A DNA stretch of 55,225 bases. It comes from a virus. Its lineage: Duplodnaviria; Caudoviricetes. A program made the translations under genes and the position numbers. The stretch covers positions 1 through 55,225 of IMG/VR virus record IMGVR_UViG_3300028553_000034; one strand, given 5' to 3'. Below are positions 12,153 through 37,926 of this stretch, piece by piece; the stretch's first letter is position 1; the number at the start of each line of letters is the position of its first letter. Below the pieces are notes generated by a model that was given only the letters and a program-made list of their open reading frames with translations, did no database searches and was not told where the DNA came from.

Positions 12153-15100
12153 ATGTACAAATATCTAAACTTTTTCAATAAAAAAGGTGAATACTGCAAT
12201 TTCGAATACCTTGAAGCAAGTGATAAATGGGTTGGTCGTATAGATTTCAATACCGTATCAGAAGGTCTTATTGAAGATTTCCAATTGTATATCATGGAAG
12301 AGGTGTATAATTCTTCTTCGCAATCTTATGAGTATGTATATCCTATAGGATCTACTTCACTCCCTAGCAACGGAGCTACTGCTTATTTTACATCTACAAA
12401 TCCTATAACAGAAATGTTCCTTTATGATTTTGATTTAGGTGCAACTGCAAATACTTTGACTAAGTCGTATTCTATGGAATATAATTTCGATTCTGTTGCG
12501 TATTCGATAGGAACTACAGGAGTTAAAGATGGAATAAAAGAGGTAACAACTATTAATTCAGTTCCAATTCAAGTAAATCTTGGATTTTCTCCAATGACTG
12601 AAAGGGGTTATAGTTCAGTTGTTTTTATCAAAGACGCAGATGATAATATATTTGCTGAAATTCTTTTATATGGCGAAGGTGAAGAAGAAGATCAACGTTT
12701 AAGAGATTGGTTAGCTGCTTTAGGAGGAGATCTTTTACCACAAGATGAATCGATTTTTGATGAATCGGATGTTAATGAAATAAAAACGAATTGGTCTTTA
12801 TTCAATAAGAAGAGAAAGGAAATGTTACTTGAGTATTCTAACATATATCCTTACTTAGGATCTTATAAAGCTCTCATAAATATCATTAAATTCTTCGGTT
12901 ATCAAAATCTAAGAATGAAAGAATACTGGTTAAATGTTGATTCTGAAAGTGTTTATTTCGGTAAATTCAAACAAATGAACATATCCGATGTTTTTACTAA
13001 AGATGCAAATTTCAATAATACGTCTCTCATTCCGAGTAAAATTTATAAGAAAACTAATAAATTCGGTCTTTATTATGACATAACAATAGAATCAGGAGAT
13101 TATGATGATGATGGAATTCCTATAGTCGAAGAAGTTTTTTCATACACACCTCAAGAAATTTTGATTAAAATCTTCGCATTAAAGAAAAAACTTCAAAATT
13201 ATTTCTTGCCTGTAAATGCTAAAATTGTTGATATTATAGGTGAAGCAGTTTACTTTGCTAAATACGATACAAATGTATGGAACGATCAATATAGAATTGA
13301 TAAAATCGAATTGGGACTTAAGCCTTCATTCGAAGTTCTTCCTTCACCTTCCGGATTCTTACAAGATCTAAGATACTTAAATTTCTTCGGATGTCCAGTA
13401 GGTCCAGACCTAACAATAGGAGGCCAAACAAACATTCTTTCCTGGTATGTAACACTTAATCCTAATGGGATTAATGTAGGTGGAATGCCTACACCTTTAG
13501 ATACAGTTCAAACTTTTAGATTTGTTTTTTATATTCCTACAGGAACAACTGCAACAGTAGATACGGTAATTGAAAGAGATCCAAATACAGGGAAATACAT
13601 ATATACTGATTCAGAAGTAGCAGATTTGATTATTAAATCTCTTAGGGATGATTCATATGTTGGATCTAATTTTACGATATATCAAGAAGGAGGTGATTCA
13701 GGAACTATTAGAATTGTACAAAAAGAAGCAATAGGTGATGGATCAATTTATGTTACTTGGATGAGTAATACTTCAGGATCTTTCCCACAGGCAACTATAC
13801 AATATACAGTTCCGACAATATCAGGTGGTGGAGGAACCGCAGCCTCTATAAACGTTTCGACTGGACCTTCAGGCTCTTTTGGAGCCTCAGGTGCACCTAT
13901 AAGTTATTTTGCTGATTGTTTCTTAGGTTATTTTGATAAAGCAAATATACCAATAAGACAATTAAACGACGACGAAGATATTCCAATTGGATATCCAATC
14001 ACACTTAACAATAAAACTTTCGATATTAATTGGGATGATGCTAATGTAACCTTCAATCAAATCGATCTAGTTGGACCCACTAGTGGAACTCTATATGGAT
14101 CTTTTAATTTATCTCAAACTATCTCAGGTTGGACGTCATCTCCAGGATCAACGAGTAATCCTATATACGTCGGAGCAACAGGCTTTCCTACTTTGTTTCC
14201 CTCCCAATTCAATTACAGTTGGCAAAGCCTTGGTTATTATGGATATTACGAAATGCAATGGATTATAACTAAGGTTGCTGATGATACTCCTGCTTTCTCT
14301 TTTGATAGTGGAAAAATTGGAATAGAAGATGGAGATAATTATCCTGTGATCCTCCCTTATGTAGGATTCTATAAAGTAGAACTTTACATGTGGGATAGTT
14401 ATAATACGAAATCTTTCTTAATTAATGAAGATATGATTGAAGTTAAAATGAAAGAATCTGACTTTATCGGATGGTATCAATTCAGAGAACTCGATTATAA
14501 ATTAAACACAAGAAAATACGATGTACAGTTAGATTTTATTCCGCCCCCTCCATTGAATGGAATAACACCTCTTAAACCTCTATTAACTTGGGACGAATAT
14601 GCATCTACTTGGGATCTTCCTTTACACCCAAATGAATCAATTGATATGGCAGATATGAGTTATAATTCTCTAGACTCATCTGAATTTTACAAAACAATCA
14701 CGGATCCTTCAAACAATCCTCTAGTTGATAGATTCCCTTACACATATAATTTGATGAGTCTTCTTCCAAAATGGGATGATCTTTATCATCTTTGGTGGGA
14801 TGGAATAGGAACTAAAATAACTCAATGGGAAATTAAGAATGTAACAGGTCCTACTGCTCATATATTTATGACTAAAGGAAATACAATTCTAGATGTTAAT
14901 TCTATCGATGTTCATTATGAACAAGGACCCACTGGTTATACAGGAGCTACAGGAGCTACAGGATCTACTGGATCTACTGGGGATATTATTGTTTCTAATG
15001 CAAATAGAAGAACATATCAATATGACGGAACAAATTGGGTCTACATAATCGATGTTGTTGATTCTTATGAGATAACAGGACTTATAGGATCTACTGCGGA

Positions 15101-15968
15101 TAATATGTTATCAATAGTAAAGGAACTTAATCAAATAATGCCTTTTGATGGAATAAATCATCCTTTCTTAAATGATTTCATCTATTATTACAATGAAGAT
15201 TATGATAGCAACTATCAATTAATTCCTTATATTCGATCAGTTTCTAAAGACTTCGATCGAGGAGGAAGACACAAAATTAAATTGGATGGTGCAACAGGAG
15301 ATAATAAATCGTATGAGACTGTTTATTTTGGATATGTCGGTGATATCCCTACACATTTTGAAATTTATAAGATTGAGTCTCTAGGACCGACAGGTAGCAT
15401 ATTAATAAATGGAATGAGTTCTCCTTATTTAATTGGATCAACTTCTTTAATGGATTTAGCTGATGAACTTAACGGACCTACTGCTCAAGGAGTAGATGGA
15501 ATAAATAATTTTCAATACAACCTTGTTCTAGGATATTCAGGAGCTACAGGACCTACAACTTCCTCTATAACTCCTAGCGAGATAAAAATTCAAGCTATCT
15601 CAAAAGCATTTACTAGTCCAAGTGAAACAACAGTTGAATTTGTAGATATTATTGGAACTTCGTATGGTAGATCAATAATTAAAAATCCAACATGGGATGA
15701 AGTAAGAATTCTTAAATATGCACAAAATTTACCTCTATGTACAGTGGTTAATTTCACATATGATAACTCTGTAATAAACGGAAAGAAGAATCCTAAATGG
15801 AAACTTACAAAAGAAGGAGATTCGAACTTCACGGATATATACTACAATAATAAGTATTTCTCCTATATGTTCAACGAAAAGGGTAGTTACACCGTTTCAC
15901 TTGAGCTAGAAGATACAAACGGTAATAAGAAATCAGTAACAAAAAAAGAAATAATAAAAATAATTTAA
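12153..15968 (+). CDS. Large baseplate wedge protein (gp7-like region) with Ig/PKD-like domains
   Basis: YLGSYKALINIIKFFGY resembles the gp7/tail protein I KGT..AI...L...G motif. GFYKVELY and GSYTVSLELEDTNGN are PKD-like ends. Follows gp6. Confidence 0.6.
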   Translation: MYKYLNFFNKKGEYCNFEYLEASDKWVGRIDFNTVSEGLIEDFQLYIMEEVYNSSSQSYEYVYPIGSTSLPSNGATAYFTSTNPITEMFLYDFDLGATANTLTKSYSMEYNFDSVAYSIGTTGVKDGIKEVTTINSVPIQVNLGFSPMTERGYSSVVFIKDADDNIFAEILLYGEGEEEDQRLRDWLAALGGDLLPQDESIFDESDVNEIKTNWSLFNKKRKEMLLEYSNIYPYLGSYKALINIIKFFGYQNLRMKEYWLNVDSESVYFGKFKQMNISDVFTKDANFNNTSLIPSKIYKKTNKFGLYYDITIESGDYDDDGIPIVEEVFSYTPQEILIKIFALKKKLQNYFLPVNAKIVDIIGEAVYFAKYDTNVWNDQYRIDKIELGLKPSFEVLPSPSGFLQDLRYLNFFGCPVGPDLTIGGQTNILSWYVTLNPNGINVGGMPTPLDTVQTFRFVFYIPTGTTATVDTVIERDPNTGKYIYTDSEVADLIIKSLRDDSYVGSNFTIYQEGGDSGTIRIVQKEAIGDGSIYVTWMSNTSGSFPQATIQYTVPTISGGGGTAASINVSTGPSGSFGASGAPISYFADCFLGYFDKANIPIRQLNDDEDIPIGYPITLNNKTFDINWDDANVTFNQIDLVGPTSGTLYGSFNLSQTISGWTSSPGSTSNPIYVGATGFPTLFPSQFNYSWQSLGYYGYYEMQWIITKVADDTPAFSFDSGKIGIEDGDNYPVILPYVGFYKVELYMWDSYNTKSFLINEDMIEVKMKESDFIGWYQFRELDYKLNTRKYDVQLDFIPPPPLNGITPLKPLLTWDEYASTWDLPLHPNESIDMADMSYNSLDSSEFYKTITDPSNNPLVDRFPYTYNLMSLLPKWDDLYHLWWDGIGTKITQWEIKNVTGPTAHIFMTKGNTILDVNSIDVHYEQGPTGYTGATGATGSTGSTGDIIVSNANRRTYQYDGTNWVYIIDVVDSYEITGLIGSTADNMLSIVKELNQIMPFDGINHPFLNDFIYYYNEDYDSNYQLIPYIRSVSKDFDRGGRHKIKLDGATGDNKSYETVYFGYVGDIPTHFEIYKIESLGPTGSILINGMSSPYLIGSTSLMDLADELNGPTAQGVDGINNFQYNLVLGYSGATGPTTSSITPSEIKIQAISKAFTSPSETTVEFVDIIGTSYGRSIIKNPTWDEVRILKYAQNLPLCTVVNFTYDNSVINGKKNPKWKLTKEGDSNFTDIYYNNKYFSYMFNEKGSYTVSLELEDTNGNKKSVTKKEIIKII

Positions 15969-15969
15969 C

Positions 15970-16539
15970 ATGGCAATCACAACAACAACATTGAACGGAA
16001 CAGATTCAGTATCGGCTTCAAGGATTACCCTTAATGACAACTTTAATACAATTAAGGAGGCATTAAACGATGTATTGAGCATTATTGACATTGCAACAGG
16101 AAAAATAAATAACTACGGATACGGGAGTAATAATGATATGGAAACTGAAGATCTTATTGTTAGAGGATCTGTTAGTGGTGGTATTAATGTTATATCTGGG
16201 AATGTAGCTGTAGGTGCAGGAAATGTCGTTATAGGTGCAAACAATTATCTACAAATTGGTGCAGGGACTAATTCTATTTATTTTGAAAAATTAACTAAAA
16301 CCTATGCAGTTTCTGGATCTATTCCAACTATCAACTTTTCCGGTAGTGGAGTTACAGGACCAACTGCTTCAGGACCTGTTGGTTATATGACATTACCTAG
16401 AATGACTACTGCGGATATTAATTCTATCGTAAGTCCTCTTGAAGGATCTATCGTATACGATTTAACATTAAATGCTTTTGTAGGATGTACTGGATCTAGT
16501 GCAACTGCTGGTGGTAGTAACTGGGCAATTTTATCATAA
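15970..16539 (+). CDS. Virion structural protein (short fibre-like)
   Basis: N-terminal DSVSASRITLNDNF (fibre anchor-like) and C-terminal LPRMTT...GSIVYD, a motif often seen in fibre proteins. Confidence 0.55.
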   Translation: MAITTTTLNGTDSVSASRITLNDNFNTIKEALNDVLSIIDIATGKINNYGYGSNNDMETEDLIVRGSVSGGINVISGNVAVGAGNVVIGANNYLQIGAGTNSIYFEKLTKTYAVSGSIPTINFSGSGVTGPTASGPVGYMTLPRMTTADINSIVSPLEGSIVYDLTLNAFVGCTGSSATAGGSNWAILS

Positions 16540-16555
16540 AAATAAAAATAATTGA

Positions 16556-18625
16556 ATGGCAACTCCGCTAATTAATGCGTTAAGAGTCCAAGGTGGAACG
16601 TTTTACACATTTACTTCGGCATCAAATGATATTTCAAAAACATTTACTGATGACGATGCTAGATTTGTATTCTCTAAATTCGCCTTATTAGATATCCCTG
16701 ACGTTGCAACTCCTACGTCAAATCAAAATTACATCGTATGGGAAGCTTTAGGTGTATTAAATAGTCCCGGTCCTACATCGTATCCAAATTCATCAGTTCC
16801 TTCAGCTGATATTAATTCTGATAATAACATAAATCTAGCACAATCTTTTCAAAATTACGTTTTGAATTTAGAACAGCTAATTTTAGACGGAAGTAATAAT
16901 CTAGCTCAGGCTTATGATATGAGTCAAAAATGGTCAACTTCAGAAAGATTATTTTGGAAGTGGATGGCTAACATAAATGCTATGCGATTCAGAACTGCTA
17001 CTGCTGCTGAATCAACAGTTACAAATAGATTCACCGAAGAAGATCAATCTACTTTCTATAAGCGAGTTGTTAAATATATAGGGGATGTTGATATTGTCAA
17101 TTCCGTTTCAAGGGATGGTCATTCATATAGCGAAGTTTATCTTAATGTTCCTGTAACACACGGTAATACACCTCTTGTACTATTCAAAACATACCAAGAT
17201 TCTAATTATGCTCCAGGTAGACAATGGAGCAACGGTAACGTTTATCTCGAAGGAAGAAATGCCGGATCCGTTCACCCTACTGGACTTTCGATGATAGCTT
17301 ATTATGATAATGATGTTATAGATGCATATCTTTCAGAAGGAACTTTTGGAAATCCTACAAATACTTCTCTTTATGCAGCAGCAACTGCATTATCTCTAAA
17401 ACCTGTTCTACTTTCTGGAATGGACGGAATTATTCTTGATACTGATGCTGATTCATATAAACCGATTGTAGATGATCCAAATATCTCTTTAATATCAGAA
17501 TTCAATGCTTCTGATGCTTCTGGGGATTTCGCATTCAATGCCGCACTCGTTTATTATGACGTTTATAGTTCATCAAATCCTATGGATCGAGCAAGAAACC
17601 TATATGGAATTCTTGTTTTAGACGATTATGTTAATCAAGTATCAGCACCATCTTACCTTAAAAGATTCGATAAATATAAACCTAATAAAATTACGAAACT
17701 TAACGGTAACGGATACGGTTTGAAATTGAATGTTAAATTCGATACTTCTGCTGATAATGTAGGTGTTGAAACTATCATTAATGATTATAACACATTCTCA
17801 ATGGATCTATTCATTGATGCTTCAACGAGAATGCAAGAAGCTGCTGAAATGTTCTTATCTCAAAATCTACAGATTATTGAAATTAAGCAACAAATATCGG
17901 CTTTACAACAATACTATTTCTCACAGGGTGATATCACGGGACTTTCTCAAAGATTATCCGCTTTAGAATCTTCTTTGAATAATGCTCAATTAGCTTTTCA
18001 ATCAAGTACAACTTTACTCGATTTGATTAATATGAATGCAGATAATATCAATTTGATCGTCTCTGGAAATTTATCAACTAATTTAACTTACAACACAGAT
18101 GTTCTTAAAGGAGGGGATGGTATTCTACTTGATAAATCAGTTCCTAATCAAGTAAAAATAATTAATCGTACTCAGGCTTATAACAACTTTATGTTATGTG
18201 GTAATTCATCTAATAATATCGAAACTACTACGAGTAACGGACAAAATTATGCAACTACAAATCTTGTTGATAATAACATTCTTGTATTAGGAACATTTAC
18301 AAATTCATTTAGACAAACTAATCAAAACCCAGATCCTGTAACAGGAATTGAAACTTTCGCTGATACTGTGTATATAAATATAGACGATAAAAATGTTAGA
18401 TGGAAGAATGGACAAATGCTTAAATTTGTTTTTAATGAGAAAATAAATAATGGCGGTTTCAATATCATATTCAGAACAGATTCACAAAATGCTTTAGGTA
18501 ATGGAACTTATGGAAAAATAATGACTATTATTTCTCCTGCAATGTTACTTTCTGATAGACCTATATTTGAAATTTACTGCACAGACGAAAATCAATATCT
18601 ATTTAACGTAGACGTAATAAGATAA
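16556..18625 (+). CDS. Large virion structural protein with a coiled-coil segment
   Basis: 689-aa ORF in the structural operon with a heptad-like stretch (IIEIKQQISALQQ...LSQRLSALESSL). Confidence 0.55.
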   Translation: MATPLINALRVQGGTFYTFTSASNDISKTFTDDDARFVFSKFALLDIPDVATPTSNQNYIVWEALGVLNSPGPTSYPNSSVPSADINSDNNINLAQSFQNYVLNLEQLILDGSNNLAQAYDMSQKWSTSERLFWKWMANINAMRFRTATAAESTVTNRFTEEDQSTFYKRVVKYIGDVDIVNSVSRDGHSYSEVYLNVPVTHGNTPLVLFKTYQDSNYAPGRQWSNGNVYLEGRNAGSVHPTGLSMIAYYDNDVIDAYLSEGTFGNPTNTSLYAAATALSLKPVLLSGMDGIILDTDADSYKPIVDDPNISLISEFNASDASGDFAFNAALVYYDVYSSSNPMDRARNLYGILVLDDYVNQVSAPSYLKRFDKYKPNKITKLNGNGYGLKLNVKFDTSADNVGVETIINDYNTFSMDLFIDASTRMQEAAEMFLSQNLQIIEIKQQISALQQYYFSQGDITGLSQRLSALESSLNNAQLAFQSSTTLLDLINMNADNINLIVSGNLSTNLTYNTDVLKGGDGILLDKSVPNQVKIINRTQAYNNFMLCGNSSNNIETTTSNGQNYATTNLVDNNILVLGTFTNSFRQTNQNPDPVTGIETFADTVYINIDDKNVRWKNGQMLKFVFNEKINNGGFNIIFRTDSQNALGNGTYGKIMTIISPAMLLSDRPIFEIYCTDENQYLFNVDVIR

Positions 18626-18626
18626 C

Positions 18627-21600
18627 ATGGATACTAAATACTCACTAACAACACTATTAAACGACCTCTTAAGGTTACAGAACAATTCATATCAGATTAT
18701 CTCTAAGGTATCTGATTTGGTATCTTCTAAATCAGACACTATTGAAATGCCTGTATTGGATGCTAATGGCGTAATTCAATCTGTTCAGGTTCCTTCTTTC
18801 GGAGCTATTAAAGATCAACTTACTCGTCTGGAATCAGATGTTAAATCCATTGCAGGAATAGGTGAAACCGAATCTTCAGTTAGACTTTCGGATGGATCTT
18901 TTAGAAAAATCCTAGTTAGTAATTTTCAAAGAGAAGCTGCAGATATTAAATCTATGCCAGTTCCTATTTCTTTTAACACAAAAGAAAATTGGTTTTTTGA
19001 ATCTTTTTTGAATCCTCTTCTTTATGTTTCTTTTAATTTAGGCGATCAAGTTAAATACAACACCGAAAACGTCGAAGTTTCTCGTTATATTCTAAATATA
19101 AATAGTGATGCACAAAAACAATCATTTAACAATAACTTCTTAAGTAAAGCAGACATTCAATATGAAAATTTCGCTAAGGTTCTTATTGCTAATGGAATAA
19201 CCTACTTCTTAGATCAAGACGTAGTTCCTTTACCTCCTAGATCATTAAGATATTTTGGTAACTTTGCAGTAACAAAAATTACTGACGATACAGTTACTGA
19301 ACAAATTGATAATGTTAATTATTCAAAAAGAGTTATTAGAGTTCAACTTGATTCTTTAACTTATAACGATTCACAATCTGAATTTTTAGGAACACAATCT
19401 CTTAAAATTGGAGATTCCCTTATCGTTAATTCGGGAAGACAAAATACTCGATATGAGATTACACAAATCGAATCTTCTACGAGAACTGTAGGTGTTAGAT
19501 TAATTGAAGGTGCAGATCCTATTACAATCGGAACCAATATATTCTCAATTTATTCAGCTGATGAATCTCCTGTTAATGTAAATGTTAATATAGGATTCGA
19601 TGAATATACCGTTGTCTTCATTAAACCTATTGATCCGGATTCTAAAATTTCAGCTGTAAATTGGTCTCCTGGTGTTGGATTCTATACATCAGACCTAAAA
19701 ACTAAAAATGATGTTGGTGAAGATATTGCACTTAGCACATATTATCAAAATGAGGTTGTTGATTTTGGATCTTATCTTTATTCAATAGCTAAAGATGGAG
19801 TAATTCCTACTTCTTTAGGTATCGAACCAGATTCTCCGGATTTGAATGTAGAGAATTTCAAAGTTGTTCAGGTTAATCAACACCTAACAGACAATTCTGT
19901 TCTTTCGGATTTGAAAAAACTCCAATCGGATAAACAAAGAATTCAATCGGATCTAAGATCAACGGATAAATCTATTAAAGAACTTAGATCGAAGATTCAA
20001 ACTACGCAATACGCATCTCAGCAATTAAAAGAAACTGATCAAAATCAATTAAGTACTTTGATCAATCAAAGAGATTCCCTTTCGTCTCTCTTTTCTTCTA
20101 CTATTGATGATATTAATACTATTGGAGTTTCTAATTCGGTTGATCAACTTACGCCTAAATATAGAATTAGAGGATTCTTCCCTATGCCTATTGCAAAATC
20201 CTCGGATAGAACATCCCCTCAAGAAGTTGTACAATTTATTGTACAATATAGATATTTAAGTAAAGAAGGTGGAGCTAATCAACCTGAACAAATCAATTTC
20301 TTGGATCAGGACGGACAAACTCGTAGAGGAACTTTTTCTACTTGGGTAGAAGTTCGATCTGAAGTAAGACAAAGAAAAACCGACCCTACAACAGGTCAAG
20401 TAACTTGGGCTATTGAAGATCTAGAAAATGCTGATTCAGTTAATATAAATTCGGTAGATATTCCAATCTCATTTGGTGAATCTGTAGAATTTAGAATTAA
20501 ATCTCTTTCTGAATCCGGATGGCCAGTATCCCCTAAGGAATCTGAATTTTCAGAAATTATGAAAATAGAATTTCCTCCAGAATTCGAATCTTCTCCAGAT
20601 GCCGGATCTATTCTTTCCGAAGCAAATGATGAGAAAGTAAGAGTTGAGCTACAACAAGATCTTGATGCATTAGGTATAAAGAAACACGTTGCAAATCAAT
20701 TCGAACAAAATGGAAAATTCTTTGCTCATCCATCAACCGAAATTTCTTCTGGATTCTTATCTCCTGAACAAAATGTTATTGCTCTTTTTGATAAGCTAAT
20801 AGCAATGGATTCAGAAATCGCTAGATTGACTGCATTATTAGAAGCTTCGAGAGGTGTTCTTGTTGTTAGAGTAATCGACGAAGCTGGAACAGAATATCAA
20901 GTTCAATCTAATACAACGTTGAAACTTTTTGCTGGAAATTATAAGGATGAGGTTGCACAAAGAACAGTTAAAAAAGGTGCAATTATTTCTAAGAATTATT
21001 TTGTTAAAATGTTTAATGATTCCGCAAGTTCTCTTGAAATGTATGCTAGATATTGGGGAAATCGAATTTATAAAGCTAATGAATCTTGGTCAGGTGGAAC
21101 AGCTTACAATTCAAACGACACAGATTATAATTTAACGAGAAGATATGATCGAGTTCCTTTAGGACTTTCTAATCCTTCATTAGATGATGTATCTTCTTAT
21201 GGATTTGTTAGGGAACTTCCACAACAATCTTCTCAAGTTCTTGGTGAATTTATTTCTTCTAGATATGTTTCTATTGATGGCAAATCTAATCTTTATGGTG
21301 CTGTTAGTGGAGCTACAAATGGTGTTATTGATGCATTTTCTCAAACTTCTAATTCTTCGCCTTATTTTGCTTCTAATATCGATGATTTAGAATGGATAAA
21401 TGATCTTACTATACAAGATGCTATATCATCTACTGCTGGTATTGGATCTTCTGCATCTGATTTTATTTGGAAAGGATCTTTAACTGGACCTACAACAATT
21501 TCGAACGTGATTCCTTTATTAGATGGATCCGTAATTAACGATTATGATGATACAATTCTTATTCATATCGATCATCCTGCTATAGATGATTGGAATCTTG

Positions 21601-22250
21601 AATCAGATCCTAATTCAGCTGCTAATTTAGATGTAAGAAATTCTATTTTAGGAAATGTTATTTCTGGTTCTACTGGATCTCTATATCAAACTCCTTTATT
21701 TTTTGAAGGTGTAGGTGGAACAGGAGATCGATACGCTAAAATAGCTTTTGATGTAAATGATCAATATCTTTTAGGACCTAAATCTGTTGGTTGTTATTTG
21801 TTTATGAATCCTACTTCACATTCAGATATAGTTGTTGATGGATCAGATTCCCTATCAGTTAGAAGAATTACTTTTGGTGAAGAACAAGCAATAACTATTC
21901 CTATTACTTTCCAATATAGAATGACAGATTATTTTGGAGTTGGAAATGTAGGTATTGGTAACATTTCTGGAGTTAGAAACTTTTCTAAAAATGCTAATTT
22001 AGTTTACACAAAGAAAATAGGTTTCGATATATACAGCAATCCAATCAATAAAGAAAGGTTTTCTTTTGATATAGAGGTAACAGCTAGATATTATTCTAGA
22101 ACTATCGTTGGAAAAGATCTTCCTTCTAGAACATTCGATACTGCATTGGATGATTTGAATAAAACAATCAAGTCAATAACACCTAGAACTACTAGGAACG
22201 AAACTCCTGTACAGCTTAGAGGTACCAAAGGTGGAGATTCGAATAGATAG
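18627..22250 (+). CDS. Large virion structural protein with coiled coils and an FN3-like segment
   Basis: 1207-aa ORF with a central coiled coil. VEFRIKSLSESGWP...SEFS resembles an FN3 C-terminus. Confidence 0.55.
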   Translation: MDTKYSLTTLLNDLLRLQNNSYQIISKVSDLVSSKSDTIEMPVLDANGVIQSVQVPSFGAIKDQLTRLESDVKSIAGIGETESSVRLSDGSFRKILVSNFQREAADIKSMPVPISFNTKENWFFESFLNPLLYVSFNLGDQVKYNTENVEVSRYILNINSDAQKQSFNNNFLSKADIQYENFAKVLIANGITYFLDQDVVPLPPRSLRYFGNFAVTKITDDTVTEQIDNVNYSKRVIRVQLDSLTYNDSQSEFLGTQSLKIGDSLIVNSGRQNTRYEITQIESSTRTVGVRLIEGADPITIGTNIFSIYSADESPVNVNVNIGFDEYTVVFIKPIDPDSKISAVNWSPGVGFYTSDLKTKNDVGEDIALSTYYQNEVVDFGSYLYSIAKDGVIPTSLGIEPDSPDLNVENFKVVQVNQHLTDNSVLSDLKKLQSDKQRIQSDLRSTDKSIKELRSKIQTTQYASQQLKETDQNQLSTLINQRDSLSSLFSSTIDDINTIGVSNSVDQLTPKYRIRGFFPMPIAKSSDRTSPQEVVQFIVQYRYLSKEGGANQPEQINFLDQDGQTRRGTFSTWVEVRSEVRQRKTDPTTGQVTWAIEDLENADSVNINSVDIPISFGESVEFRIKSLSESGWPVSPKESEFSEIMKIEFPPEFESSPDAGSILSEANDEKVRVELQQDLDALGIKKHVANQFEQNGKFFAHPSTEISSGFLSPEQNVIALFDKLIAMDSEIARLTALLEASRGVLVVRVIDEAGTEYQVQSNTTLKLFAGNYKDEVAQRTVKKGAIISKNYFVKMFNDSASSLEMYARYWGNRIYKANESWSGGTAYNSNDTDYNLTRRYDRVPLGLSNPSLDDVSSYGFVRELPQQSSQVLGEFISSRYVSIDGKSNLYGAVSGATNGVIDAFSQTSNSSPYFASNIDDLEWINDLTIQDAISSTAGIGSSASDFIWKGSLTGPTTISNVIPLLDGSVINDYDDTILIHIDHPAIDDWNLESDPNSAANLDVRNSILGNVISGSTGSLYQTPLFFEGVGGTGDRYAKIAFDVNDQYLLGPKSVGCYLFMNPTSHSDIVVDGSDSLSVRRITFGEEQAITIPITFQYRMTDYFGVGNVGIGNISGVRNFSKNANLVYTKKIGFDIYSNPINKERFSFDIEVTARYYSRTIVGKDLPSRTFDTALDDLNKTIKSITPRTTRNETPVQLRGTKGGDSNR

Positions 22251-22269
22251 AATAAATAATTGAAATGAG

Positions 22270-25200
22270 ATGCCTAATCAAATACTTAAAAGAAGTTCCT
22301 TCGGATTACTTAGAACAAATCCTAAGCTAACTACTAATATAAAAATAATTGCCGATTCAAAGAATAGAATCTATTTAGAGACTATTGACGCAAATCCACT
22401 TTTAAGTAAATCAATATACAAAGGTTTTGAAGTTAGTGGTAACGGATCATATTCTTTCGATTTAAGAAGATTTTTTTCTCAAGGTAGTAGAACTCTACCA
22501 GAAGATATCGCATACAGTATTTTTGAAGAAGATCCCTCAACATCCGTAAAAGATAGATTCAATAAGCAATACGATTTCACTTATGGATATGGTATGTACC
22601 CTAAAAACAGTCGTTTATATTCCGAAGAATACTCTCTCTTTGCACCAATTTGGGTCGAGAAAGATTCTATTCCTGATTATTTCTTAATTTTCAAGATGGA
22701 CGATCCTGTTACTTTTAATTCTTTACCATATTCTACAACAAATCTAGATACAAATCCTCTACTTAATACATTAGTAGAAGATCCTTCTAATTTCTTTGAT
22801 AATGTATTAAAGAAAGCAAGAATAATCAAGAAATTTGATTTGACTGATAAGACTGAAATTGGTAAATATATTAGAAATCACGTAAATGATCCTAGTTTTC
22901 CGGAATCACCTTTTTATTCTTCATTGAATAAAGGGGAAAATTCTTATTGGAATGGAATATCATATAGAAAAGGTGGATTTGGATCTATTGGTTCTGATAT
23001 CTATTTAGATTATACACTAATTGATAAGACTTTTATAGAATCAGAAGATTTTATAACTGACGGATTCAAAAGAAATAGTGTTATTTGTGCTAATCTTCTT
23101 AATATGGAATTTCTATTTGATGATGAAGAACAAATAGAATATACATTTGGTAGATATTTTGGTCTTTACGTTAGTGAAGTCGAATTAGGTAAATTTGAAA
23201 TTAGTAAAGATCGACTTTTTGATGACAGATTCAATGAACAAACACAAACTCCACAATCGAATGAAAAGGTTATTGGTGTTTCTACTTCTGTTAAAGATGA
23301 TATTCAATATAACGTAAATGGAATAAAAATATATCCACAAATTGGAGCTTCTGGACCTTATTCAGGACGTTTGATGACTTGGTCAGAACTTCAAAATGTT
23401 AGATTTGGTTATGTTAAAGATCGAAATAGTAATTTCTATTCGATCGATAATGTTACTAATTGGTCAACATTAAATCCACTTACTAATACATCCGATACAG
23501 ATTATTTGAGAATTAAGAATAAAACGGTAAATTGGAAAAATTTTAGTGGATTTGAATCGCCTTTTACCTATATTCCTTCCATAAAAACTGACGTAAAGGG
23601 TAGACCGGCTATTGCATTTAAGTTAATTTCTGCACCAAACGACGGTGATGAAATTAGAGTACAATATACGGATTGGACGAATCCAAAAGAATCTCCTTAT
23701 ATAGATAATCACACAGTAAAAGGAAATTCTACTCTTCCTTCAGGAACTATAAGTGGATTAACTTTTAGTACTAATGGAACTTTGAAAGATATTTCTATTG
23801 CTATAGTTGCATCAATAAATCAGATACAAAATTATTCTAACGAGATTCAAGCATTTCAATCTTTTTATATCAATGGAGAGATTTTAATCTTTGCTAGAAT
23901 TAATTCCGAGAATTGGAACAAATTAAAAATATCTTTATTTAGTGATGCTTCTATATTCCCTTTCTTACTTTCAAATGAATTTATTGATGAACAATCGACA
24001 TTAACATATCAATCTTCACCTATAGCATTAAGTCCTATTTCAGCAGGAAAATTATTAATATCTAATTTCGAAGGAGGTAATAATCAATCGGAATCAAGAG
24101 CAATAATAGAGAGAAAATATATTCAAGAATTCATAGATCCTATTGATGATATTTTTATTAAGACTACTTCTGGATATAATACAACAGATGATTATGGTCT
24201 TTATCTAGACGAACCAATCTATAACGATAATGGAGAAATTATAGGGTTCAAAAACTATGATAAATACTATGTAATTAATCTCATTGACAATAAACAGAAG
24301 ATTGAATTTGGATCTTCTAGCAAATTATCACTTTATAAGAAAGCGTTGAATTCTAATGGATATCTTTCTATTTTCCCTATAAAAGATTTTGATTTTGATT
24401 TCAATAATACGGATTATAAAAAAGATGCTGATTCTTCACCTTCTGGACTTTATGATTGGTATATCAGTGGTACAGGAGGAACTGGAAATATACCTACTTT
24501 CAATTATCCGACTTTAGGACCCACTTCACAATCATTCATATATCAACTAATAGGACCTACTTCCCCCTTTGTTCAAAATGGAGGATTTCAATCTCTTATT
24601 GGATATCAAGATGATCTAAATGATACTGTAGATCCTGTTGTTAATGAATATGATCGTCTCAAAGAAAATTATGTTACTCAATTAGCTCTTTCTTCTAGAG
24701 TAGTTCCATTCATAAACAAATGGGTATATGATAATGAATCAACCGACGTTAGAGAAAATGGATATCGACTAAACGTGGATCAAGCAATGGGATATAATAA
24801 CTTTTCTCCGGATTTTGATCAAGTAGAAAAGACGACTAAATTCTTTACTCATGAGTGGTATTACTTACAGAAATATCCGCCTTATATGGATTTTAATCAG
24901 AAGCTAGAATCATTTTCGTATTTTGATAACGATCTTTATTTCCCAGATCTTCCTATTATTGGATCGCCTGGATCTACTTCCACATATTTAGGTCTTACTG
25001 GAGCTAGTGGAGCTTCAGCTAATTTACTTTCGATCGAAGAAGATTATTTCTTATCATATTTCACTAGAGAAACCGTAGATGGATTAGCGATACCTAGGGA
25101 TTTTAAGTATTCACTATTTAGTGGATCCTCTAATTCAAAGGCCGCAGAAACTCTTTTTAGAGGAATTAAAGTTGAGGTTTTAGATCGATCGGAATTTAGT

Positions 25201-27078
25201 TCAATTAATTATAATCGAGATTCTCTTAAATACGTCTATAACGAAAAATATAACAATTACAAATTTTCTGCTGTTCTTACTTATGGTAATGCAGGATCTC
25301 AGATTACTGTTATAAAAAATGATAAATGGAAATCAATAACTCTGATTATTCAATGTGATTTCTCAGATCTTCTATTTCAATATGAAGATACGAATACTTC
25401 AGAGATACACCAATTTATAGATAGATCATTACTTTATACTGTTGATGATAAATTTCAGCTTAATGCTGGAGATTTAGAATATAAAGACAATCCAATTTCT
25501 GGAAAAATAGTCGATTGGATAGATAATGGATCTTATTTTGAAGTGATAATGGGTATTGATAATGTTGGAAATTTACCTAATCTTACTTCAGAAATTACAC
25601 AAAATGAAAACGGTAGTTATAATACAATTTCAGTTTCAGCTAATTCACTCACATATATCTTCAATGATATTTACGACATAACAGCAAATACATTTAAGTG
25701 TACTTCAATAAGTGGATTACCTCTATTACCAAATCCTGCTACACCGAACGGAACATATAATTTATCAACTTTACTTTCTATTACTTGGCAACCGTTTACT
25801 GCTTTAAGAAATTCACCTTTAGAAACAAATCCTATTTATGATGCAGGCGGTTATAATGCTTATAGATCTTTAATTGATTCAATATCTTTCTCGACTATTC
25901 AATCTTCAATAAATCTTGGAGATAATGAGATTCGATATATTTCGGTTTCAAAAACAGGATTAATCGAGGAAAATACTTTTGTTATTTCTTTAGTAAGACC
26001 GGATTATCCAATTAAATCATCTTACCTAAAAAGAGAAGCTCTTAGGAAAACGTCTTTGGATTCCCAACAAAATCAATCTATTCTAGGATATACGATCGGA
26101 TCTTTAGATCGAATTTCTTTTAATCCGATAGTAAGATATAGAGGAAATTATACGCCTAGATGGAAAAATATCTTTCAATTCGTTGATATGAATGATCTTA
26201 AGTTAGAAGGATTAGATTATTTCAATATACAAATACTTACTGAATTAGCTTGGATCAAAGACAATAATTTAGGTAAGATTAAGAATTTATATTTCAATAA
26301 AGTAAACACAGAAAATCCTAACATTATTTTATCTAATAATCTTAATACGAATTCAGAGAGATTCATATATCCTTTAATAGGTGACGTATCAATTGATTTC
26401 TCAGATTTTTATGTATTCCGATCTAATTGGGATCCTTTTTACTACAAAAAATACATCAAAAATAACATTTTTGAAAATGTAATAGGAACTAGAGAACCTA
26501 AAGAAGAAAAATCATTCTTTGCATCTAAAGCAATTTCTATTCCGACTGAAATACGATTAGAAACATTTCCTTTAGGAATATCTACATCACAAGATGTTAT
26601 AGATGCTGGGTCATTACAAAATATAAATTCTGGAATAATAGAAAAAAGAATAATTACTTCATCAAAAACAGAATTAGATCTTAGTATATTAGTTACGAAA
26701 TCTTTATCTGATTGGTTAATAACTGACGGATTTGGTGTGGAATTCTATAAATTTATCGATCCAAATTATTCATTCGGTGATCTTATATTAGATGATGACA
26801 TAAAAACTTATATACAAGAAAATATATTTCAAAGATATGCAATTAAAGAAGTTATCCTTTGGGAGAAGACTTGGCTTCCTTCTAAAGGCGTAAATGATCT
26901 TCCACAAATAGCTATAAATTTAACAGATATCCAAAAAATTCAAAACGGATATCTAAAAAGCAAGAATTTCAAAGTTATCATTGATGAAAGTGGTGGACTT
27001 AATTTTAAGGTGATATATACAGTACCTAAAGATAAAAGAACCTCAATATCGATAACAGTTGTACTTGAGAAAAAATAA
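22270..27078 (+). CDS. Very large virion structural protein of unknown function
   Basis: 1602-aa uninterrupted ORF in the tail/baseplate operon. Confidence 0.55.
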   Translation: MPNQILKRSSFGLLRTNPKLTTNIKIIADSKNRIYLETIDANPLLSKSIYKGFEVSGNGSYSFDLRRFFSQGSRTLPEDIAYSIFEEDPSTSVKDRFNKQYDFTYGYGMYPKNSRLYSEEYSLFAPIWVEKDSIPDYFLIFKMDDPVTFNSLPYSTTNLDTNPLLNTLVEDPSNFFDNVLKKARIIKKFDLTDKTEIGKYIRNHVNDPSFPESPFYSSLNKGENSYWNGISYRKGGFGSIGSDIYLDYTLIDKTFIESEDFITDGFKRNSVICANLLNMEFLFDDEEQIEYTFGRYFGLYVSEVELGKFEISKDRLFDDRFNEQTQTPQSNEKVIGVSTSVKDDIQYNVNGIKIYPQIGASGPYSGRLMTWSELQNVRFGYVKDRNSNFYSIDNVTNWSTLNPLTNTSDTDYLRIKNKTVNWKNFSGFESPFTYIPSIKTDVKGRPAIAFKLISAPNDGDEIRVQYTDWTNPKESPYIDNHTVKGNSTLPSGTISGLTFSTNGTLKDISIAIVASINQIQNYSNEIQAFQSFYINGEILIFARINSENWNKLKISLFSDASIFPFLLSNEFIDEQSTLTYQSSPIALSPISAGKLLISNFEGGNNQSESRAIIERKYIQEFIDPIDDIFIKTTSGYNTTDDYGLYLDEPIYNDNGEIIGFKNYDKYYVINLIDNKQKIEFGSSSKLSLYKKALNSNGYLSIFPIKDFDFDFNNTDYKKDADSSPSGLYDWYISGTGGTGNIPTFNYPTLGPTSQSFIYQLIGPTSPFVQNGGFQSLIGYQDDLNDTVDPVVNEYDRLKENYVTQLALSSRVVPFINKWVYDNESTDVRENGYRLNVDQAMGYNNFSPDFDQVEKTTKFFTHEWYYLQKYPPYMDFNQKLESFSYFDNDLYFPDLPIIGSPGSTSTYLGLTGASGASANLLSIEEDYFLSYFTRETVDGLAIPRDFKYSLFSGSSNSKAAETLFRGIKVEVLDRSEFSSINYNRDSLKYVYNEKYNNYKFSAVLTYGNAGSQITVIKNDKWKSITLIIQCDFSDLLFQYEDTNTSEIHQFIDRSLLYTVDDKFQLNAGDLEYKDNPISGKIVDWIDNGSYFEVIMGIDNVGNLPNLTSEITQNENGSYNTISVSANSLTYIFNDIYDITANTFKCTSISGLPLLPNPATPNGTYNLSTLLSITWQPFTALRNSPLETNPIYDAGGYNAYRSLIDSISFSTIQSSINLGDNEIRYISVSKTGLIEENTFVISLVRPDYPIKSSYLKREALRKTSLDSQQNQSILGYTIGSLDRISFNPIVRYRGNYTPRWKNIFQFVDMNDLKLEGLDYFNIQILTELAWIKDNNLGKIKNLYFNKVNTENPNIILSNNLNTNSERFIYPLIGDVSIDFSDFYVFRSNWDPFYYKKYIKNNIFENVIGTREPKEEKSFFASKAISIPTEIRLETFPLGISTSQDVIDAGSLQNINSGIIEKRIITSSKTELDLSILVTKSLSDWLITDGFGVEFYKFIDPNYSFGDLILDDDIKTYIQENIFQRYAIKEVILWEKTWLPSKGVNDLPQIAINLTDIQKIQNGYLKSKNFKVIIDESGGLNFKVIYTVPKDKRTSISITVVLEKK

Positions 27079-27089
27079 ATACGTAAATA

Positions 27090-30000
27090 ATGCCAATAGT
27101 AATTAAGGAATTATTTCCTTCGGATCCTTTATCGGAAGCACTAGAGAAAATAAATTTTAACTTCGATCAACTTATTTTAGCTGGAGGAGGTCCTCAAGGA
27201 CCTCTAGGTCCTATAGGAGTTCCTGGAATACCTGGACCTCAAGGAGAAAGAGGAGATCATTGGCAAGTAGGAACAACTGCTCCTACTGCTGATCATGGAC
27301 CTAATTATGGAGCTCTTAAGGATTTTGATTTTTGGATTAGTGCAACAGGTCAAGTTTATTATTGGAGTATTGGTTCTACATCTTGGGTTAATTCAGGAAC
27401 AAATTTAACAGGACCTCAAGGTGCAAGTGGTGCAACTGGAGGATCTTTCGAAATAGGAATGTATCAAGGATCTACAGGAAATGCTAATACACCTCTTTCG
27501 ATTCCTCCAGTAGGACCTACAAATTATACTCCCGGTTCTGGTGGTGCTACCACTGTTGCTTCAGGTGGAGTAGATTTTATTATTCCAGTTAACATCAATA
27601 AGAATTCATTTTTCCTAGGAGATGGTGGTTGGGCATATTCAAAATTAAATAACTTCGGTGTTTATGATGTTACTATTCCAGGTAACATTCAAAGACTTAT
27701 ACCGAAACAAGTTATAATACAAACTGCAATAGATTCAACTGGTCTAGGAGGTTTAACTATAGGTGCATATGGAGCTACGAGTGCAATTGGTGCTACTCAA
27801 TCTAATTATGAAGGAGTTTCTACTGAAGTAACCGATGCTCTTAACTTCTTTACTGCAGGATTTGCTTATACTAATACAGCTGGTCAATACTCGCATCAAT
27901 TCCGAATGAGAACAGGAACTATAAACCTAGAGATTCAAGCAGGAGATAATAACTTTGCTGCTCTAGCTGCAGGGAAAACACCGGATCTTATTCTTAGATC
28001 GAATAGAACTTTAATTAAAGATTTTACTTCTAATCAAATTACAATAGGTGCTACCTCTACTATGTTTAGAGAAAAGGCTGCAATTGGATATTCATCAATT
28101 CCTACATTTGATAGTAATTCAACTTTAGATAATTCAGGAATAATGCGTTCTAGAGGAGATATTTATGTAGGAGCTTTGAATGGCCTTGCAAATACTATAC
28201 ATATAGGATATGCAAGAACTTCGGATGGATCTGCTTCTTTAAATCTTTATACTAACGGTTCTACACCGACAACTTCTACTTTTTCGATAGGAAGAGTTAA
28301 TGGAGTTAATGGAGTAGCGACTATAGATCAAACAGGAACAGGCGCTCTACAAATAAATTCAACAACTTCAGGCAGTTACATAAATTTAGTAGCTAATCAT
28401 CTAAGTGGACATATTCGTTTTAGTAATTCTTCAGGTTCAGAAATAGCTAGAATTGATACAGTAAATTCAAGAGTAGGAATAGGAACTTCTTCCCCTTCGA
28501 ATACATTAGATGTAGTAGGTTCCTCTATGGGATTAAGAGCAGGAATTTATGGTACATCAAATTCCATAGAATTTATAAATTCTATAGGATCTCCAATAAG
28601 TTCAAGGATAGCTTTTGGTTCTGATGGATCAAGTTGGAATTTAGCATTTGCTAAGAATGTAGCCGGAACTTATACTGATTTGATGACATTACAAACAAAT
28701 GGTAATTTTGGAATAGGAACAACAACACCTAATGATCGTTTAGAAGTTAAAGATGGAGGAATTATAGTAAATACAACTACGATTCTTAATTATTCTAATG
28801 GATATGGAATTCAATTTAACAATAATACTTCATTTTATTCAGGAATAAAATCTTATACTAGTACTCCTGCAAATAACATGGGTCTTTCTTTCTTTAGTTC
28901 TAATGCTGGATCTTCAGTTGAATCGATGAGAATACAACCGAATGGATTCATAAGTATAGGTCCATCAGCACACCAAAACGTTCCTGAATATAGAATTCAT
29001 ATACAAGGAGACGAAGAAAATTCTATTTTAATTAGATCAAGAAATACAACAATCGGAACACAAAATAATATCCTATTACAAAGATCAAATCTTTCAGCTG
29101 CTACACCTAATGCATATGCTTTAGGTGGATTAAGCTTTGGTGGTTATAATGGAACTACTTGGACTTCTGGATACAACGGTGGATCGCAAATTCTTTCTTA
29201 TTCTTCAGGTACATGGACAGCAACTTCTAATCCATCAGATCTAAGATTCTCGACTACTCCTATTAATACAATTGCTACAGTTGAAAGAATGAGAATTTCG
29301 AATTCAGGAAATATATCAGTTGGTTCTCAAGGAAATGCAACTTTTAATTTAGAATTTCAAGGAAATGCAAATAAAATTATAGGTGTAAGTGGTGCTAATA
29401 CAGGGGATGGATTTGATTTGGATGTAAGAGGTGGTCAATCAGGAGTAACGGTCGATGCAAATGGCGGAATCCTTAATTTGTATATGGGACAATCTAGAGG
29501 ATCCGGTAATTCGAGTATTGGGTTTTGGGGATTAGGAATAGGTGGAATTGCGTCTTCTAATTTAAGAACATACGAACAAAAAGCCATAATGAATGAAAAT
29601 GGAAATTGGGCTTTTGGTAGTATAACCCCTTCGTCTTCTAAAATAGATCTTCTAGGATCTTTAAGAATAAGAAGCTCTTCGTCTAATAATAACGTTCTCG
29701 CAAACGGTCTGAGATTTAATTCAGATGACGACACTTATGAATCCGAAATAAGAGCATATCAAGGATCCAGTAATTCTCGATTAGGACTTTCTTTTAGAAC
29801 TACTGATAATTCTTCTACGACATCAGAACGTATGCGACTAAATCCAGATGGAGGAATTCAAATGATGAATGATACACTTGTAACTGAAGGATCATTTACA
29901 ATCTCCGTTCTCACTCCTACTACAATTATTGACGCTTCATATCAAAATGTTATTAATATAGCCTCGGATGATAAAGATAGAATAATTTATTTTAGTAGAG

Positions 30001-30254
30001 ATGATGATTCTGGTGGAGGAATAATACAAGGATCTATGGTAATGGAAGTTCTTATTGGAGTAAATACAATATATCACGCTGTACTTGCTTATGATTTTTT
30101 AAGTCCTGCACAGGGAAGAAAAACAGCAGCTAATGCTTCTTATAGTTTTGTTTTACCTAGTGGATTATCTTCTATTGTCAGATATAAAAGAATAGCATTT
30201 CAAACTACGGGAACTCTATCTTATAGTGCAAAATCATTAAGATTTGGAAAATAA
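27090..30254 (+). CDS. Tail fibre / receptor-binding protein
   Basis: N-terminal EKINFNFDQL anchor, collagen-like GPQGPLGPIGVPGIPGPQGERG, and repeated ERMRI..SGNVGIGT..P-type fibre modules (RVGIGTSSP, NFGIGTTTP, ERMRISNSGNI, ERMRLNPDG). Confidence 0.8.
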   Translation: MPIVIKELFPSDPLSEALEKINFNFDQLILAGGGPQGPLGPIGVPGIPGPQGERGDHWQVGTTAPTADHGPNYGALKDFDFWISATGQVYYWSIGSTSWVNSGTNLTGPQGASGATGGSFEIGMYQGSTGNANTPLSIPPVGPTNYTPGSGGATTVASGGVDFIIPVNINKNSFFLGDGGWAYSKLNNFGVYDVTIPGNIQRLIPKQVIIQTAIDSTGLGGLTIGAYGATSAIGATQSNYEGVSTEVTDALNFFTAGFAYTNTAGQYSHQFRMRTGTINLEIQAGDNNFAALAAGKTPDLILRSNRTLIKDFTSNQITIGATSTMFREKAAIGYSSIPTFDSNSTLDNSGIMRSRGDIYVGALNGLANTIHIGYARTSDGSASLNLYTNGSTPTTSTFSIGRVNGVNGVATIDQTGTGALQINSTTSGSYINLVANHLSGHIRFSNSSGSEIARIDTVNSRVGIGTSSPSNTLDVVGSSMGLRAGIYGTSNSIEFINSIGSPISSRIAFGSDGSSWNLAFAKNVAGTYTDLMTLQTNGNFGIGTTTPNDRLEVKDGGIIVNTTTILNYSNGYGIQFNNNTSFYSGIKSYTSTPANNMGLSFFSSNAGSSVESMRIQPNGFISIGPSAHQNVPEYRIHIQGDEENSILIRSRNTTIGTQNNILLQRSNLSAATPNAYALGGLSFGGYNGTTWTSGYNGGSQILSYSSGTWTATSNPSDLRFSTTPINTIATVERMRISNSGNISVGSQGNATFNLEFQGNANKIIGVSGANTGDGFDLDVRGGQSGVTVDANGGILNLYMGQSRGSGNSSIGFWGLGIGGIASSNLRTYEQKAIMNENGNWAFGSITPSSSKIDLLGSLRIRSSSSNNNVLANGLRFNSDDDTYESEIRAYQGSSNSRLGLSFRTTDNSSTTSERMRLNPDGGIQMMNDTLVTEGSFTISVLTPTTIIDASYQNVINIASDDKDRIIYFSRDDDSGGGIIQGSMVMEVLIGVNTIYHAVLAYDFLSPAQGRKTAANASYSFVLPSGLSSIVRYKRIAFQTTGTLSYSAKSLRFGK

Positions 30255-37893: not shown

Positions 37894-37926
37894 AAAAGGA
37901 CATCTCTATCGAGGTGTCCTTTTTTT
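37894..37926 (+). terminator. Rho-independent terminator after gp32
   Basis: AAAAGGACATCTC-TATC-GAGGTGTCCTTTT stem-loop followed by a T run. Confidence 0.85.

Follow-up and report, generated by a model that had tools for sequence, protein, structure and literature searches.

The contig studied here, IMG/VR record IMGVR_UViG_3300028553_000034 (Duplodnaviria; Caudoviricetes), is called the window below and was analysed over its full length of 55,225 bases, which is all the sequence available for this phage. Its distal tail proteins carry a short recurring motif, G-[APS]-[TS], which is very probably a collagen-type Gly-X-Thr unit (GPT, GAT, GST). Putative O-glycosylation of Thr in at least some of these units is the reading that we favour, although it falls a little short of probable, and the function of the scattered single units is less settled than their collagen-type identity. 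The motif had been proposed in a first-pass annotation of the window to be an undescribed glycosylation sequon. This novelty was not borne out, as the motif is a Thr-rich collagen triplet whose glycosylation is documented for BclA3/SgtA and for BclA (PMC7157674, PMC7793302, PMC11923368).

Enrichment of the motif in distal tail proteins

Six open reading frames (ORFs) spanning positions 12153-30254 (6012 residues) were tested against 2000 residue shuffles inside each protein. All motif copies listed in the first-pass annotation were present, including the TGATA that ends a 49-residue ORF (35353-35502). G[APS][TS] occurred 51 times in the six ORFs (17.04 expected; reached by 0/2000 shuffles), so that the enrichment exceeds composition, G[APS][TS]G 17 times (1.61 expected) and G[AP]T 25 times (3.35 expected). 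When the residues were shuffled in blocks of 20 or 40, the expected values were 19.4 and 19.2, and the observed count of 51 was reached by 0/1000 shuffles. Among all 8000 tripeptides, GPT (12 vs 1.48) ranked first and GAT (13 vs 1.91) second; GST was found 11 times (4.0 expected). What is enriched is G-[P,A,S]-Thr, since G-X-T with any other middle residue stayed near expectation (27 vs 29.9), and GTS (3 vs 4.0), GSS (8 vs 5.3), GMT (0 vs 0.55) and GVT (2 vs 1.9) were not enriched. Serine had also been put forward as an acceptor in the third position, a suggestion not supported by the counts (G[APS]S 15 vs 9.7).

The codon pattern of the motif was found 36 times in frame, 2 times in the other two frames and 5 times on the opposite strand; the signal therefore lies at the protein level, and a DNA-level cause was ruled out. 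The motif had been described as rare in the replication proteins, and this holds: the 12 proteins upstream of the six ORFs contained 3 copies (6.4 expected) and the 34 proteins downstream 6 (9.4 expected). Its recurrence across virion proteins was upheld for ORFs 12153, 22270 and 27090, each of which is enriched individually, but not for ORFs 15970, 16556 and 18627, which are at expectation (Table 1).

Identity of the motif as a collagen-type unit

The residues of the motif favour one cyclic order. G-[AP]-T occurred 25 times and its cyclic permutations [AP]-T-G and T-G-[AP] 12 and 10 times (3.4 expected for each), as against 2, 3 and 5 occurrences of the three non-cyclic orders of the same residues (again 3.4 expected for each). 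The joint excess of G-X-T and its cyclic permutations is thus the signature of a period-3 frame. The residue at +3 of the motif was G, S or A in 39 of the 51 sites, and 26 of the 51 copies stood in a period-3 register, as short runs of 2 to 8 triplets. An excess of G-x-x-G spacing was seen in the same three enriched ORFs (z 5.2, 2.0 and 2.4), and Tandem Repeats Finder (TRF) detected 9-bp arrays beneath the runs, with nonamers directly repeated in the DNA. Taken together, order, register, G-x-x-G excess and 9-bp arrays identify the unit as a Thr-rich collagen triplet. A 2025 survey notes an anomalously high frequency of TGP and TGA triplets in collagen-like domains from bacteria and viruses, and considers Thr glycosylation as a stabiliser of such domains (PMC11923368).

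The view that most copies are isolated had to be revised, because 26 of the 51 have a Gly three residues away (3.0 expected) and only 25 are isolated, a number that still exceeds the 14.2 expected (reached by 10/2000 shuffles). With a collagen-like domain taken as at least six contiguous Gly-X-Y triplets (definition of PMC11923368), two domains were found, at residues 925-942 of ORF 12153 (6 triplets) and residues 34-57 of ORF 27090 (8 triplets). The remaining sites occur singly or in runs of 2-4 triplets, and most copies are thus not part of a collagen domain. The Collagen model PF01391 gave no match at E ≤ 0.01 in any of the six ORFs because the runs are too short.

Table 1. Coordinates of the tail-protein features, the rmlA gene and the main gene blocks in the window.
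Feature	Position	Strand	Details
1271-aa distal baseplate/tail protein (ORF 12153), main carrier	12153..15968	+	21 G[APS][TS] sites vs 2.8 expected, 0/2000 shuffles
Micro-run GPS-GSF-GAS-GAP	13863..13898	+	ORF 12153 aa 571-582; loop with pLDDT below 50
Six-triplet run GPT-GYT-GAT-GAT-GST-GST-G	14925..14981	+	ORF 12153 aa 925-943; modelled as coil, pLDDT 66-68
9-bp tandem repeat encoding GAT-GPT	15538..15557	+	ORF 12153 aa 1130-1135; TRF period 9, 2.2 copies
ORFs 15970, 16556 and 18627	15970..22250	+	Chance level: 2 vs 1.2, 1 vs 1.2 and 4 vs 2.6
1602-aa distal tail protein (ORF 22270)	22270..27078	+	8 sites vs 2.6 expected, 13/2000 shuffles
1054-aa tail-fibre-like protein (ORF 27090)	27090..30254	+	15 sites vs 6.6 expected, 2/2000 shuffles
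Eight-triplet Pro-rich collagen-like stem GPQ-GPL-GPI-GVP-GIP-GPQ-GER-GDH	27189..27260	+	ORF 27090 aa 34-57
Micro-run GPQ-GAS-GAT-G	27411..27440	+	ORF 27090 aa 108-117; 9-bp tandem repeat 27420-27439
RmlA, glucose-1-phosphate thymidylyltransferase	37914..38858	+	TIGR01207, 442.8 bits (cut-off 360.65)
Baseplate hub and wedge families	genes 5011-11903	+	Family matches
Distal tail proteins, large ORFs	12153 to 33320	+	Mostly without a named family
Replication module	from 36930	+	gp32, RmlA, primase, UvsW-like helicase, dUTPase
Replication module, further genes		+	Two-ORF family-B polymerase, ribonucleotide reductase, RecA/UvsX-like protein, DnaB-like helicase

Carrier proteins and structural setting of the sites

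The main carrier, ORF 12153, remained enriched when its six-triplet run was left out (16 vs 2.5 expected). It had no Pfam match, and a profile search of PDB sequences gave weak PKD-like matches at its C-terminus only (E 0.015-0.13). An AlphaFold (AF2) model of residues 72-1271, built from a 50-row alignment (mean predicted local distance difference test score, pLDDT, 77.4), shows a multi-domain, beta-rich protein; a Foldseek search of the PDB with this 1200-residue model returned generic beta-sandwich strings only (TMq at most 0.07). A further check suggested in the first-pass annotation, the mapping of sites to loops, came out in favour of loops: 18 of the 20 modelled sites lie in coil (52% coil overall), in indel-prone loops. 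Their settings comprise a beta-hairpin turn (aa 899), helix N-caps (979, 1095), a helix C-cap (1108) and low-confidence loops. The six-triplet run overlaps a 9-bp tandem array at 14939-14977 (4.3 copies, 93% matches). In the micro-run at residues 571-582, the GAS/GPS-G position is retained in 6/6 clade orthologues, as is the second unit of the GAT-GPT repeat at residues 1130-1135.

Of the eight sites in ORF 22270, 4 are in register and 4 isolated, and its partial orthologues contain 8, 9, 10 and 5 sites (2.0-2.7 expected). ORF 27090 is a Gly-rich (12.9%) and Ser/Thr-rich (21.7%) protein with a hit to phrog_9942 'tail fiber protein' (E 5.9e-08) and no sequence relative in the PDB. Its eight-triplet stem is underlain by a 9-bp tandem array (27188-27217), and the same stem is present in the orthologue encoded by G001, a 246-kb relative contig with terminal repeats (completeness estimate 80%) that is syntenic with the entire window. 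The same ORF also holds a perfect 9-bp tandem repeat at 28294-28315 (2.4 copies), which encodes GVN-GVN in frame and is not of the G-X-T type.

Conservation and turnover of the units

Orthologues of ORF 12153 were identified in seven IMG/VR loci. Those with 92-47% identity retain 16-18 sites (~2.7 expected), as against 0-2 sites in orthologues with 32-37% identity and in the huge phage LR756500. The motif is thus specific to certain clades, a point raised in the first-pass annotation: enrichment was seen in 8 of 107 representatives (≥600 aa, homologous to the C-terminal 712 residues of ORF 12153), and in several of these eight the units are mostly isolated. In a sister lineage with the same gene order, which includes contig G008, 28 and 24 sites were counted (~4.5 expected), again mostly isolated.

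Each of the six clade orthologues has 16-21 sites; together these fall into 42 site clusters, 18 of which occur in one orthologue only and 11 in at least four. Indel columns were found within 3 residues of 68 of the 105 sites, a proximity shared by 25% of residues overall and by 39% of Gly residues. Across relatives, the number of units per protein is therefore kept while their positions shift, as judged from the aligned sequences, and this turnover suggests that selection acts on the units and not on fixed positions.

At the genome level, a simple ORF caller yielded 6 enriched ORFs out of 291 in G001, with the other 285 near expectation; four of the six are long collagen-like proteins composed of GPT, GAT, GST, GVT and GMT. 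LR756500 (462 kb, 595 ORFs) showed no enrichment and no G-X-Y run of at least five triplets. The 92%-identical relative G005 carries at its contig end a 5'-open 919-aa ORF (reverse strand, first 2761 bases of 19980-36690), which contains a long proline-free GSS/GTS collagen-like tract and lies ~14 kb upstream of the equivalent of the window start. The window phage probably has a similar long-tract gene upstream of position 1, and a long repeat of this kind may cause assemblies to break there.

A glycosyltransferase family in relatives

G001 holds three genes of family GT2. One of these encodes a 409-aa protein from a large enzyme family, with 45.6% identity to its G008 orthologue and without an orthologue in LR756500. 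It was modelled with a mean pLDDT of 90.8 as a GT-A domain followed by ten helices, referred to below as GT-A+TPR architecture; D121, D123 and E124 are invariant across 48 sequences. The best full-length PDB matches of the model are SunS and ThuS (E 3.5e-17, probability 1.00, TMq 0.60), with 392-404 aligned columns for full-length chains at 16-20% sequence identity.

The surroundings of this family were compared in viral contigs, using 79 loci centred on the enzyme and 80 centred on the ribonucleotide reductase small subunit. A run of at least six G-X-Y triplets was present in the flanks of 33/79 enzyme loci and 2/80 control loci (Fisher p 3.4e-10). The nearest run lay at a median distance of 1411 bp from the enzyme gene, within 2 kb in 28/33 cases and on the same strand in 31/33, and the commonest triplets beside the enzyme were GPT (102), GAT (81) and GST (38). 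After clustering of the enzymes at 70% identity, 11/25 clusters had a neighbouring run. The enzyme-free phages PAU, PTm1, MaF61, MA9V-1 and LR756500 showed neither a run of at least six G-X-Y triplets nor enrichment, as opposed to the enzyme-bearing G001 and LR756501, where enrichment is accompanied by such runs in 5 and 13 ORFs, respectively.

G001 also contains a sugar island (232743-238813), comprising a weak GT1-like ORF, two NAD-dependent epimerase/dehydratases, a 372-aa ORF without assigned function and a 300-aa GT2. A collagen-like ORF of 495 aa follows ~4 kb downstream of the island, beyond an Hsp20 gene. This arrangement is suggestive, but the GT2 of the island also has a relative in the motif-free LR756500.

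RmlA and the search for glycosyltransferases in the window

The presence of RmlA in the window, noted in the first-pass annotation, was confirmed, the protein scoring as a true RfbA equivalog (Table 1). Its proposed part in a glycosylation system was rejected. The gene, inserted into the replication module between gp32 and primase, has a patchy distribution, being present at this junction in the relative G004 and absent from it in the motif-bearing G001 and G003. A domain scan covered 48 of the 52 window ORFs, the other four being 49-75 aa long. In the 48 scanned ORFs, no epimerase/dehydratase, dTDP-sugar isomerase or RmlD domain that would indicate rmlB, rmlC or rmlD was detected, nor was any glycosyltransferase domain; further genes of both kinds had been named as something to look for. 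RmlA is detached from the motif on account of its absence in G001 and G003 and the lack of these partners in the scanned ORFs, and from sequence it is an accessory gene unrelated to the motif, which may serve DNA modification, the supply of nucleotide sugars or some other role. ORF 30244-31077 was considered as a hidden glycosyltransferase, a possibility that found no support, its Atlas look-alikes being DUF6808/DUF6549 viral proteins.

Favoured reading and alternative explanations

In the mechanism that we propose, the exposed Thr of the G-X-T units would be the acceptor for a phage-encoded protein O-glycosyltransferase of the GT-A+TPR type. Such an enzyme would share its architecture with SgtA of C. 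difficile, for which Thr in GPT triplets is the acceptor, and its fold with SunS/ThuS. Its gene would lie beyond the 55-kb fragment, as in the syntenic G001 and G008, and the fibre proteins would be modified in the cytoplasm, either ahead of assembly or in the course of it. The outcome would be a glycan coat on the distal tail; in the longer runs, the glycans could possibly stabilise a Pro-poor triple helix. A factor that is specific to the clade and reads the unit would explain the dispersed positions, the constant density and the restriction to GPT, GAT and GST, and no candidate for such a reader other than the GT-A+TPR enzyme was found. The earlier idea of acceptors for a phage-encoded O-glycosylation system is thereby retained in part: it accords with exposed, indel-prone loops, with a density kept despite turnover, with clade specificity and with an enzyme of relatives encoded near GPT/GAT/GST genes, but not with the unlinked RmlA, the lack of a glycosyltransferase in the scanned window ORFs or the half of the copies that stand in collagen register.

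Several observations weigh against glycosylation. The glycosyltransferase scan of 48 of the 52 window ORFs was negative, and for the window phage the enzyme is deduced from its relatives only. Half of the copies and all tandem arrays are explicable by collagen register and slippage without any modification. SunS and ThuS attach sugar through S-links to Cys in small peptides and not through O-links to Thr. The helical repeat (TPR-like) domain of the G001 enzyme is seen only in the predicted model: no TPR Pfam match was obtained in the G001 enzymes even at E ≤ 1, and PF07719 was found in 1/120 enzyme relatives. The enzyme gene lies away from the tail module, at 146 kb in G001 and 124 kb in G008, and adjacency of enzyme and substrate genes was found neither in the window nor in G001 or G008. 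The compared loci and genomes are phylogenetically non-independent (the 79 loci represent 25 clusters), and since the control gene belongs to the replication module, the contrast with it may partly reflect structural-module context. The presence of the enzyme is also not sufficient for enrichment, because members of the ORF 12153 family in three enzyme-bearing records are at expectation (G011, 5 vs 3.2; G013, 2 vs 1.4; G014, 4 vs 2.5); LR756501 shows weak enrichment (6 vs 1.9), and five other enzyme-bearing records show modest enrichment (G015-G020; 7-10 vs 3.8-4.6).

The closest competitor, a real possibility though a doubtful one, is that the units are unmodified structural elements of collagen type, that is, Gly-X-Thr spacers, turns and helix caps that arose by 9-bp slippage, are tolerated in loops, share the triplet vocabulary of the long collagen-like fibres of the clade and involve no trans-acting enzyme. 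It accounts directly for the 26/51 copies in period-3 register (3.0 expected), for the tandem arrays at 14939-14977, 15538-15557, 27188-27217 and 27420-27439, for the sites at the hairpin turn (aa 899), helix N-caps (979, 1095), C-cap (1108) and loops, and for their association with indel columns; it also agrees with the occurrence of long collagen-like ORFs in motif-bearing and not in motif-free genomes, with the negative glycosyltransferase scan of the window and with the collagen-like fibres of E. coli prophages, described as trimeric and unglycosylated (PMC3368898). Slippage yields runs, yet isolated G[AP]T is in excess (13 vs 2.8 expected; 0/2000 shuffles), and the units of six orthologues fall into 42 site clusters. 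In distant orthologues, whose domains are the same, other residues occupy the turns, so the fold does not require GPT. GTS, GSS, GMT and GVT, which make up long tracts in relatives, are not enriched in the six ORFs, and neutral remnants would not be expected to hold a constant density over eight lineages while their positions turn over. In addition, (Gly-Pro-Thr)10 is reported to fold only if its Thr is glycosylated (PMC11923368, citing Bann 2000).

The clade-specific enrichment, the density maintained through turnover and the exposed loops point to a trans-acting reader in general, which could also be a protein for decoration or assembly that docks on G-[PAS]-T loops, or a factor that modifies the Thr in some other way. 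Neighbouring ORFs without known function could supply such a factor (e.g. 15970-16539 and the DUF6808/DUF6549-like 30244-31077), but no candidate reader emerged, and the GT-A+TPR family is the sole factor found to be associated with the triplets; this alternative is improbable. Composition or chance in fibre proteins rich in Gly, Thr and Ser is more remote still and can scarcely be credited. The composition of ORF 27090 and the three of six ORFs at expectation would fit it, but it is contradicted by the whole-protein and block shuffles (0/2000 and 0/1000) and by the order test, with GPT and GAT the top two of 8000 tripeptides and reversed or non-cyclic orders at expectation, and the enrichment recurs in five orthologues and in the sister lineage.

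Genomic context

Every called gene of the window lies on the + strand, and the G+C content is ~32%. Relatives found by tblastn include LR756500 and other LR7565xx huge phages, Lak phages, Sphingomonas phage PAU, and Tenacibaculum, Flavobacterium and Chryseobacterium phages; a megablast search of 12153-22250 against phage records returned no nucleotide relative. The window phage is a large myophage whose proteins are similar to those of jumbo phages that infect Flavobacteriia and of the Lak and LR7565xx huge phages.

Three further features were recorded. Within the baseplate block, the 391-aa ORF 6309-7484 contains two stretches of S1 RNA-binding domains (PF00575, E 6.9e-33), an odd location for an RNA-binding fold; this ORF is kept in G001 (65% identity). 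The family-B DNA polymerase is split into ORF 46408-47787 (exonuclease and start of the polymerase domain) and ORF 51664-52851 (remaining polymerase domain), separated by ~3.9 kb that hold both ribonucleotide reductase subunits and two small ORFs, and G001 is arranged alike. Finally, a 410-aa ORF of G001 (137499-138731), which adjoins an NTP-transferase and oxidoreductases, matches the catalytic domain of the RuBisCO large chain (PF00016, E 1.2e-32).

Novelty and significance

Two elements are already known: collagen segments in phage fibres (PMC3368898) and, in Firmicute spores, collagen-like GPT regions with glycosylated Thr (PMC7157674, PMC7793302). A literature search of main texts, supplements aside, found no description of glycosylated collagen-like phage tail fibres, of a phage enzyme paired with Gly-X-Thr fibres or of dispersed single Gly-X-Thr sites. 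If the Thr residues are glycosylated, the units would constitute a glycosylation code on phage tail proteins that is readable from sequence, and sugar-coated virion surfaces would become predictable from the genome. This would bear on host recognition, protease resistance, recognition by host and animal immune systems and fibre engineering, and would mean that the SgtA/BclA3 principle of Firmicute spores also operates in viruses of Bacteroidota-type hosts. It is quite possible, if somewhat doubtful, that a widespread phage GT-A+TPR family uses Gly-[Pro/Ala/Ser]-Thr as a short acceptor sequon, on long collagen-like fibres and, in some lineages including that of the window, on single units dispersed by selection among exposed loops of outer tail proteins that are otherwise unrelated, giving an evolvable glycan coat on the host-recognition apparatus. 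If the Thr residues are unglycosylated, the units would be ordinary collagen-type micro-repeats of phage fibres and a warning that such triplets mimic sequons.

Comparison with known systems

The periplasmic O-glycosylation of Bacteroidota was set aside as a parallel: it recognises Asp-Ser/Thr-aliphatic, a motif that differs from G-X-T, and acts outside the cytoplasm. Glycocins are ribosomal peptides, and SunS and ThuS act on peptides rather than polysaccharides, forming S-links to Cys on small bacteriocin peptides. These enzymes are the closest full-length structural matches of the relatives' enzyme (PDB 7MSN, 7MSP and 7MSK, entries titled glycocin glycosyltransferases), from which they differ by the low identity of 16-20% and by their S-link chemistry.

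Glycosyltransferases encoded by mycobacteriophages modify the phages' own virion proteins (PMC12619734, citing Freeman 2023). There the glycans are placed on the C-termini of capsid and tail-tube subunits, and the account given in that source mentions no Gly-X-Thr or collagen-like context. The proteins EPclA and EPclB of E. coli O157:H7 prophages contain collagen triple-helix segments in trimeric fibre proteins (PMC3368898), comparable to the Pro-rich eight-triplet stem near the N-terminus of ORF 27090. Their domains are long and Pro/charge-rich (GPK, GPQ, GPA), and the recombinant protein is described as unglycosylated (PMC3368898), whereas the window units are GPT, GAT and GST and occur mostly singly or in micro-runs. 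BclA of Bacillus anthracis has a Thr-rich collagen-like region with O-linked rhamnose-containing oligosaccharides (PMC7793302, citing Daubenspeck 2004). Its glycans are of the rhamnose-anthrose type, and RmlA makes the first intermediate of the dTDP-rhamnose path; the window differs in holding rmlA without rmlB/C/D in the scanned ORFs, with RmlA placed in the replication module and absent in two motif-bearing relatives.

The nearest parallel is offered by SgtA and BclA3 of C. difficile. SgtA (GT-A+TPR) adds O-linked N-acetylglucosamine (O-GlcNAc) to Thr of GPT-repeat peptides in vitro, accepts short synthetic peptides as well, and is encoded directly upstream of its collagen-like substrate gene (PMC7157674). 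Here, by contrast, the system would belong to a phage, with the enzyme gene outside the window and away from the tail module in syntenic relatives, and many of the window units are single or in runs of 2-6 triplets in loops of beta-rich proteins, not in a long collagen-like region. The likeness, drawn from architecture and not from sequence, lies in the two-part GT-A and helical build of the phage enzyme family, in the position of the phage enzymes at a median of 1.4 kb from collagen-like GPT/GAT/GST genes in 33/79 viral loci, and in the enrichment of the acceptor-type units GPT, GAT and GST in the candidate substrates of the window.

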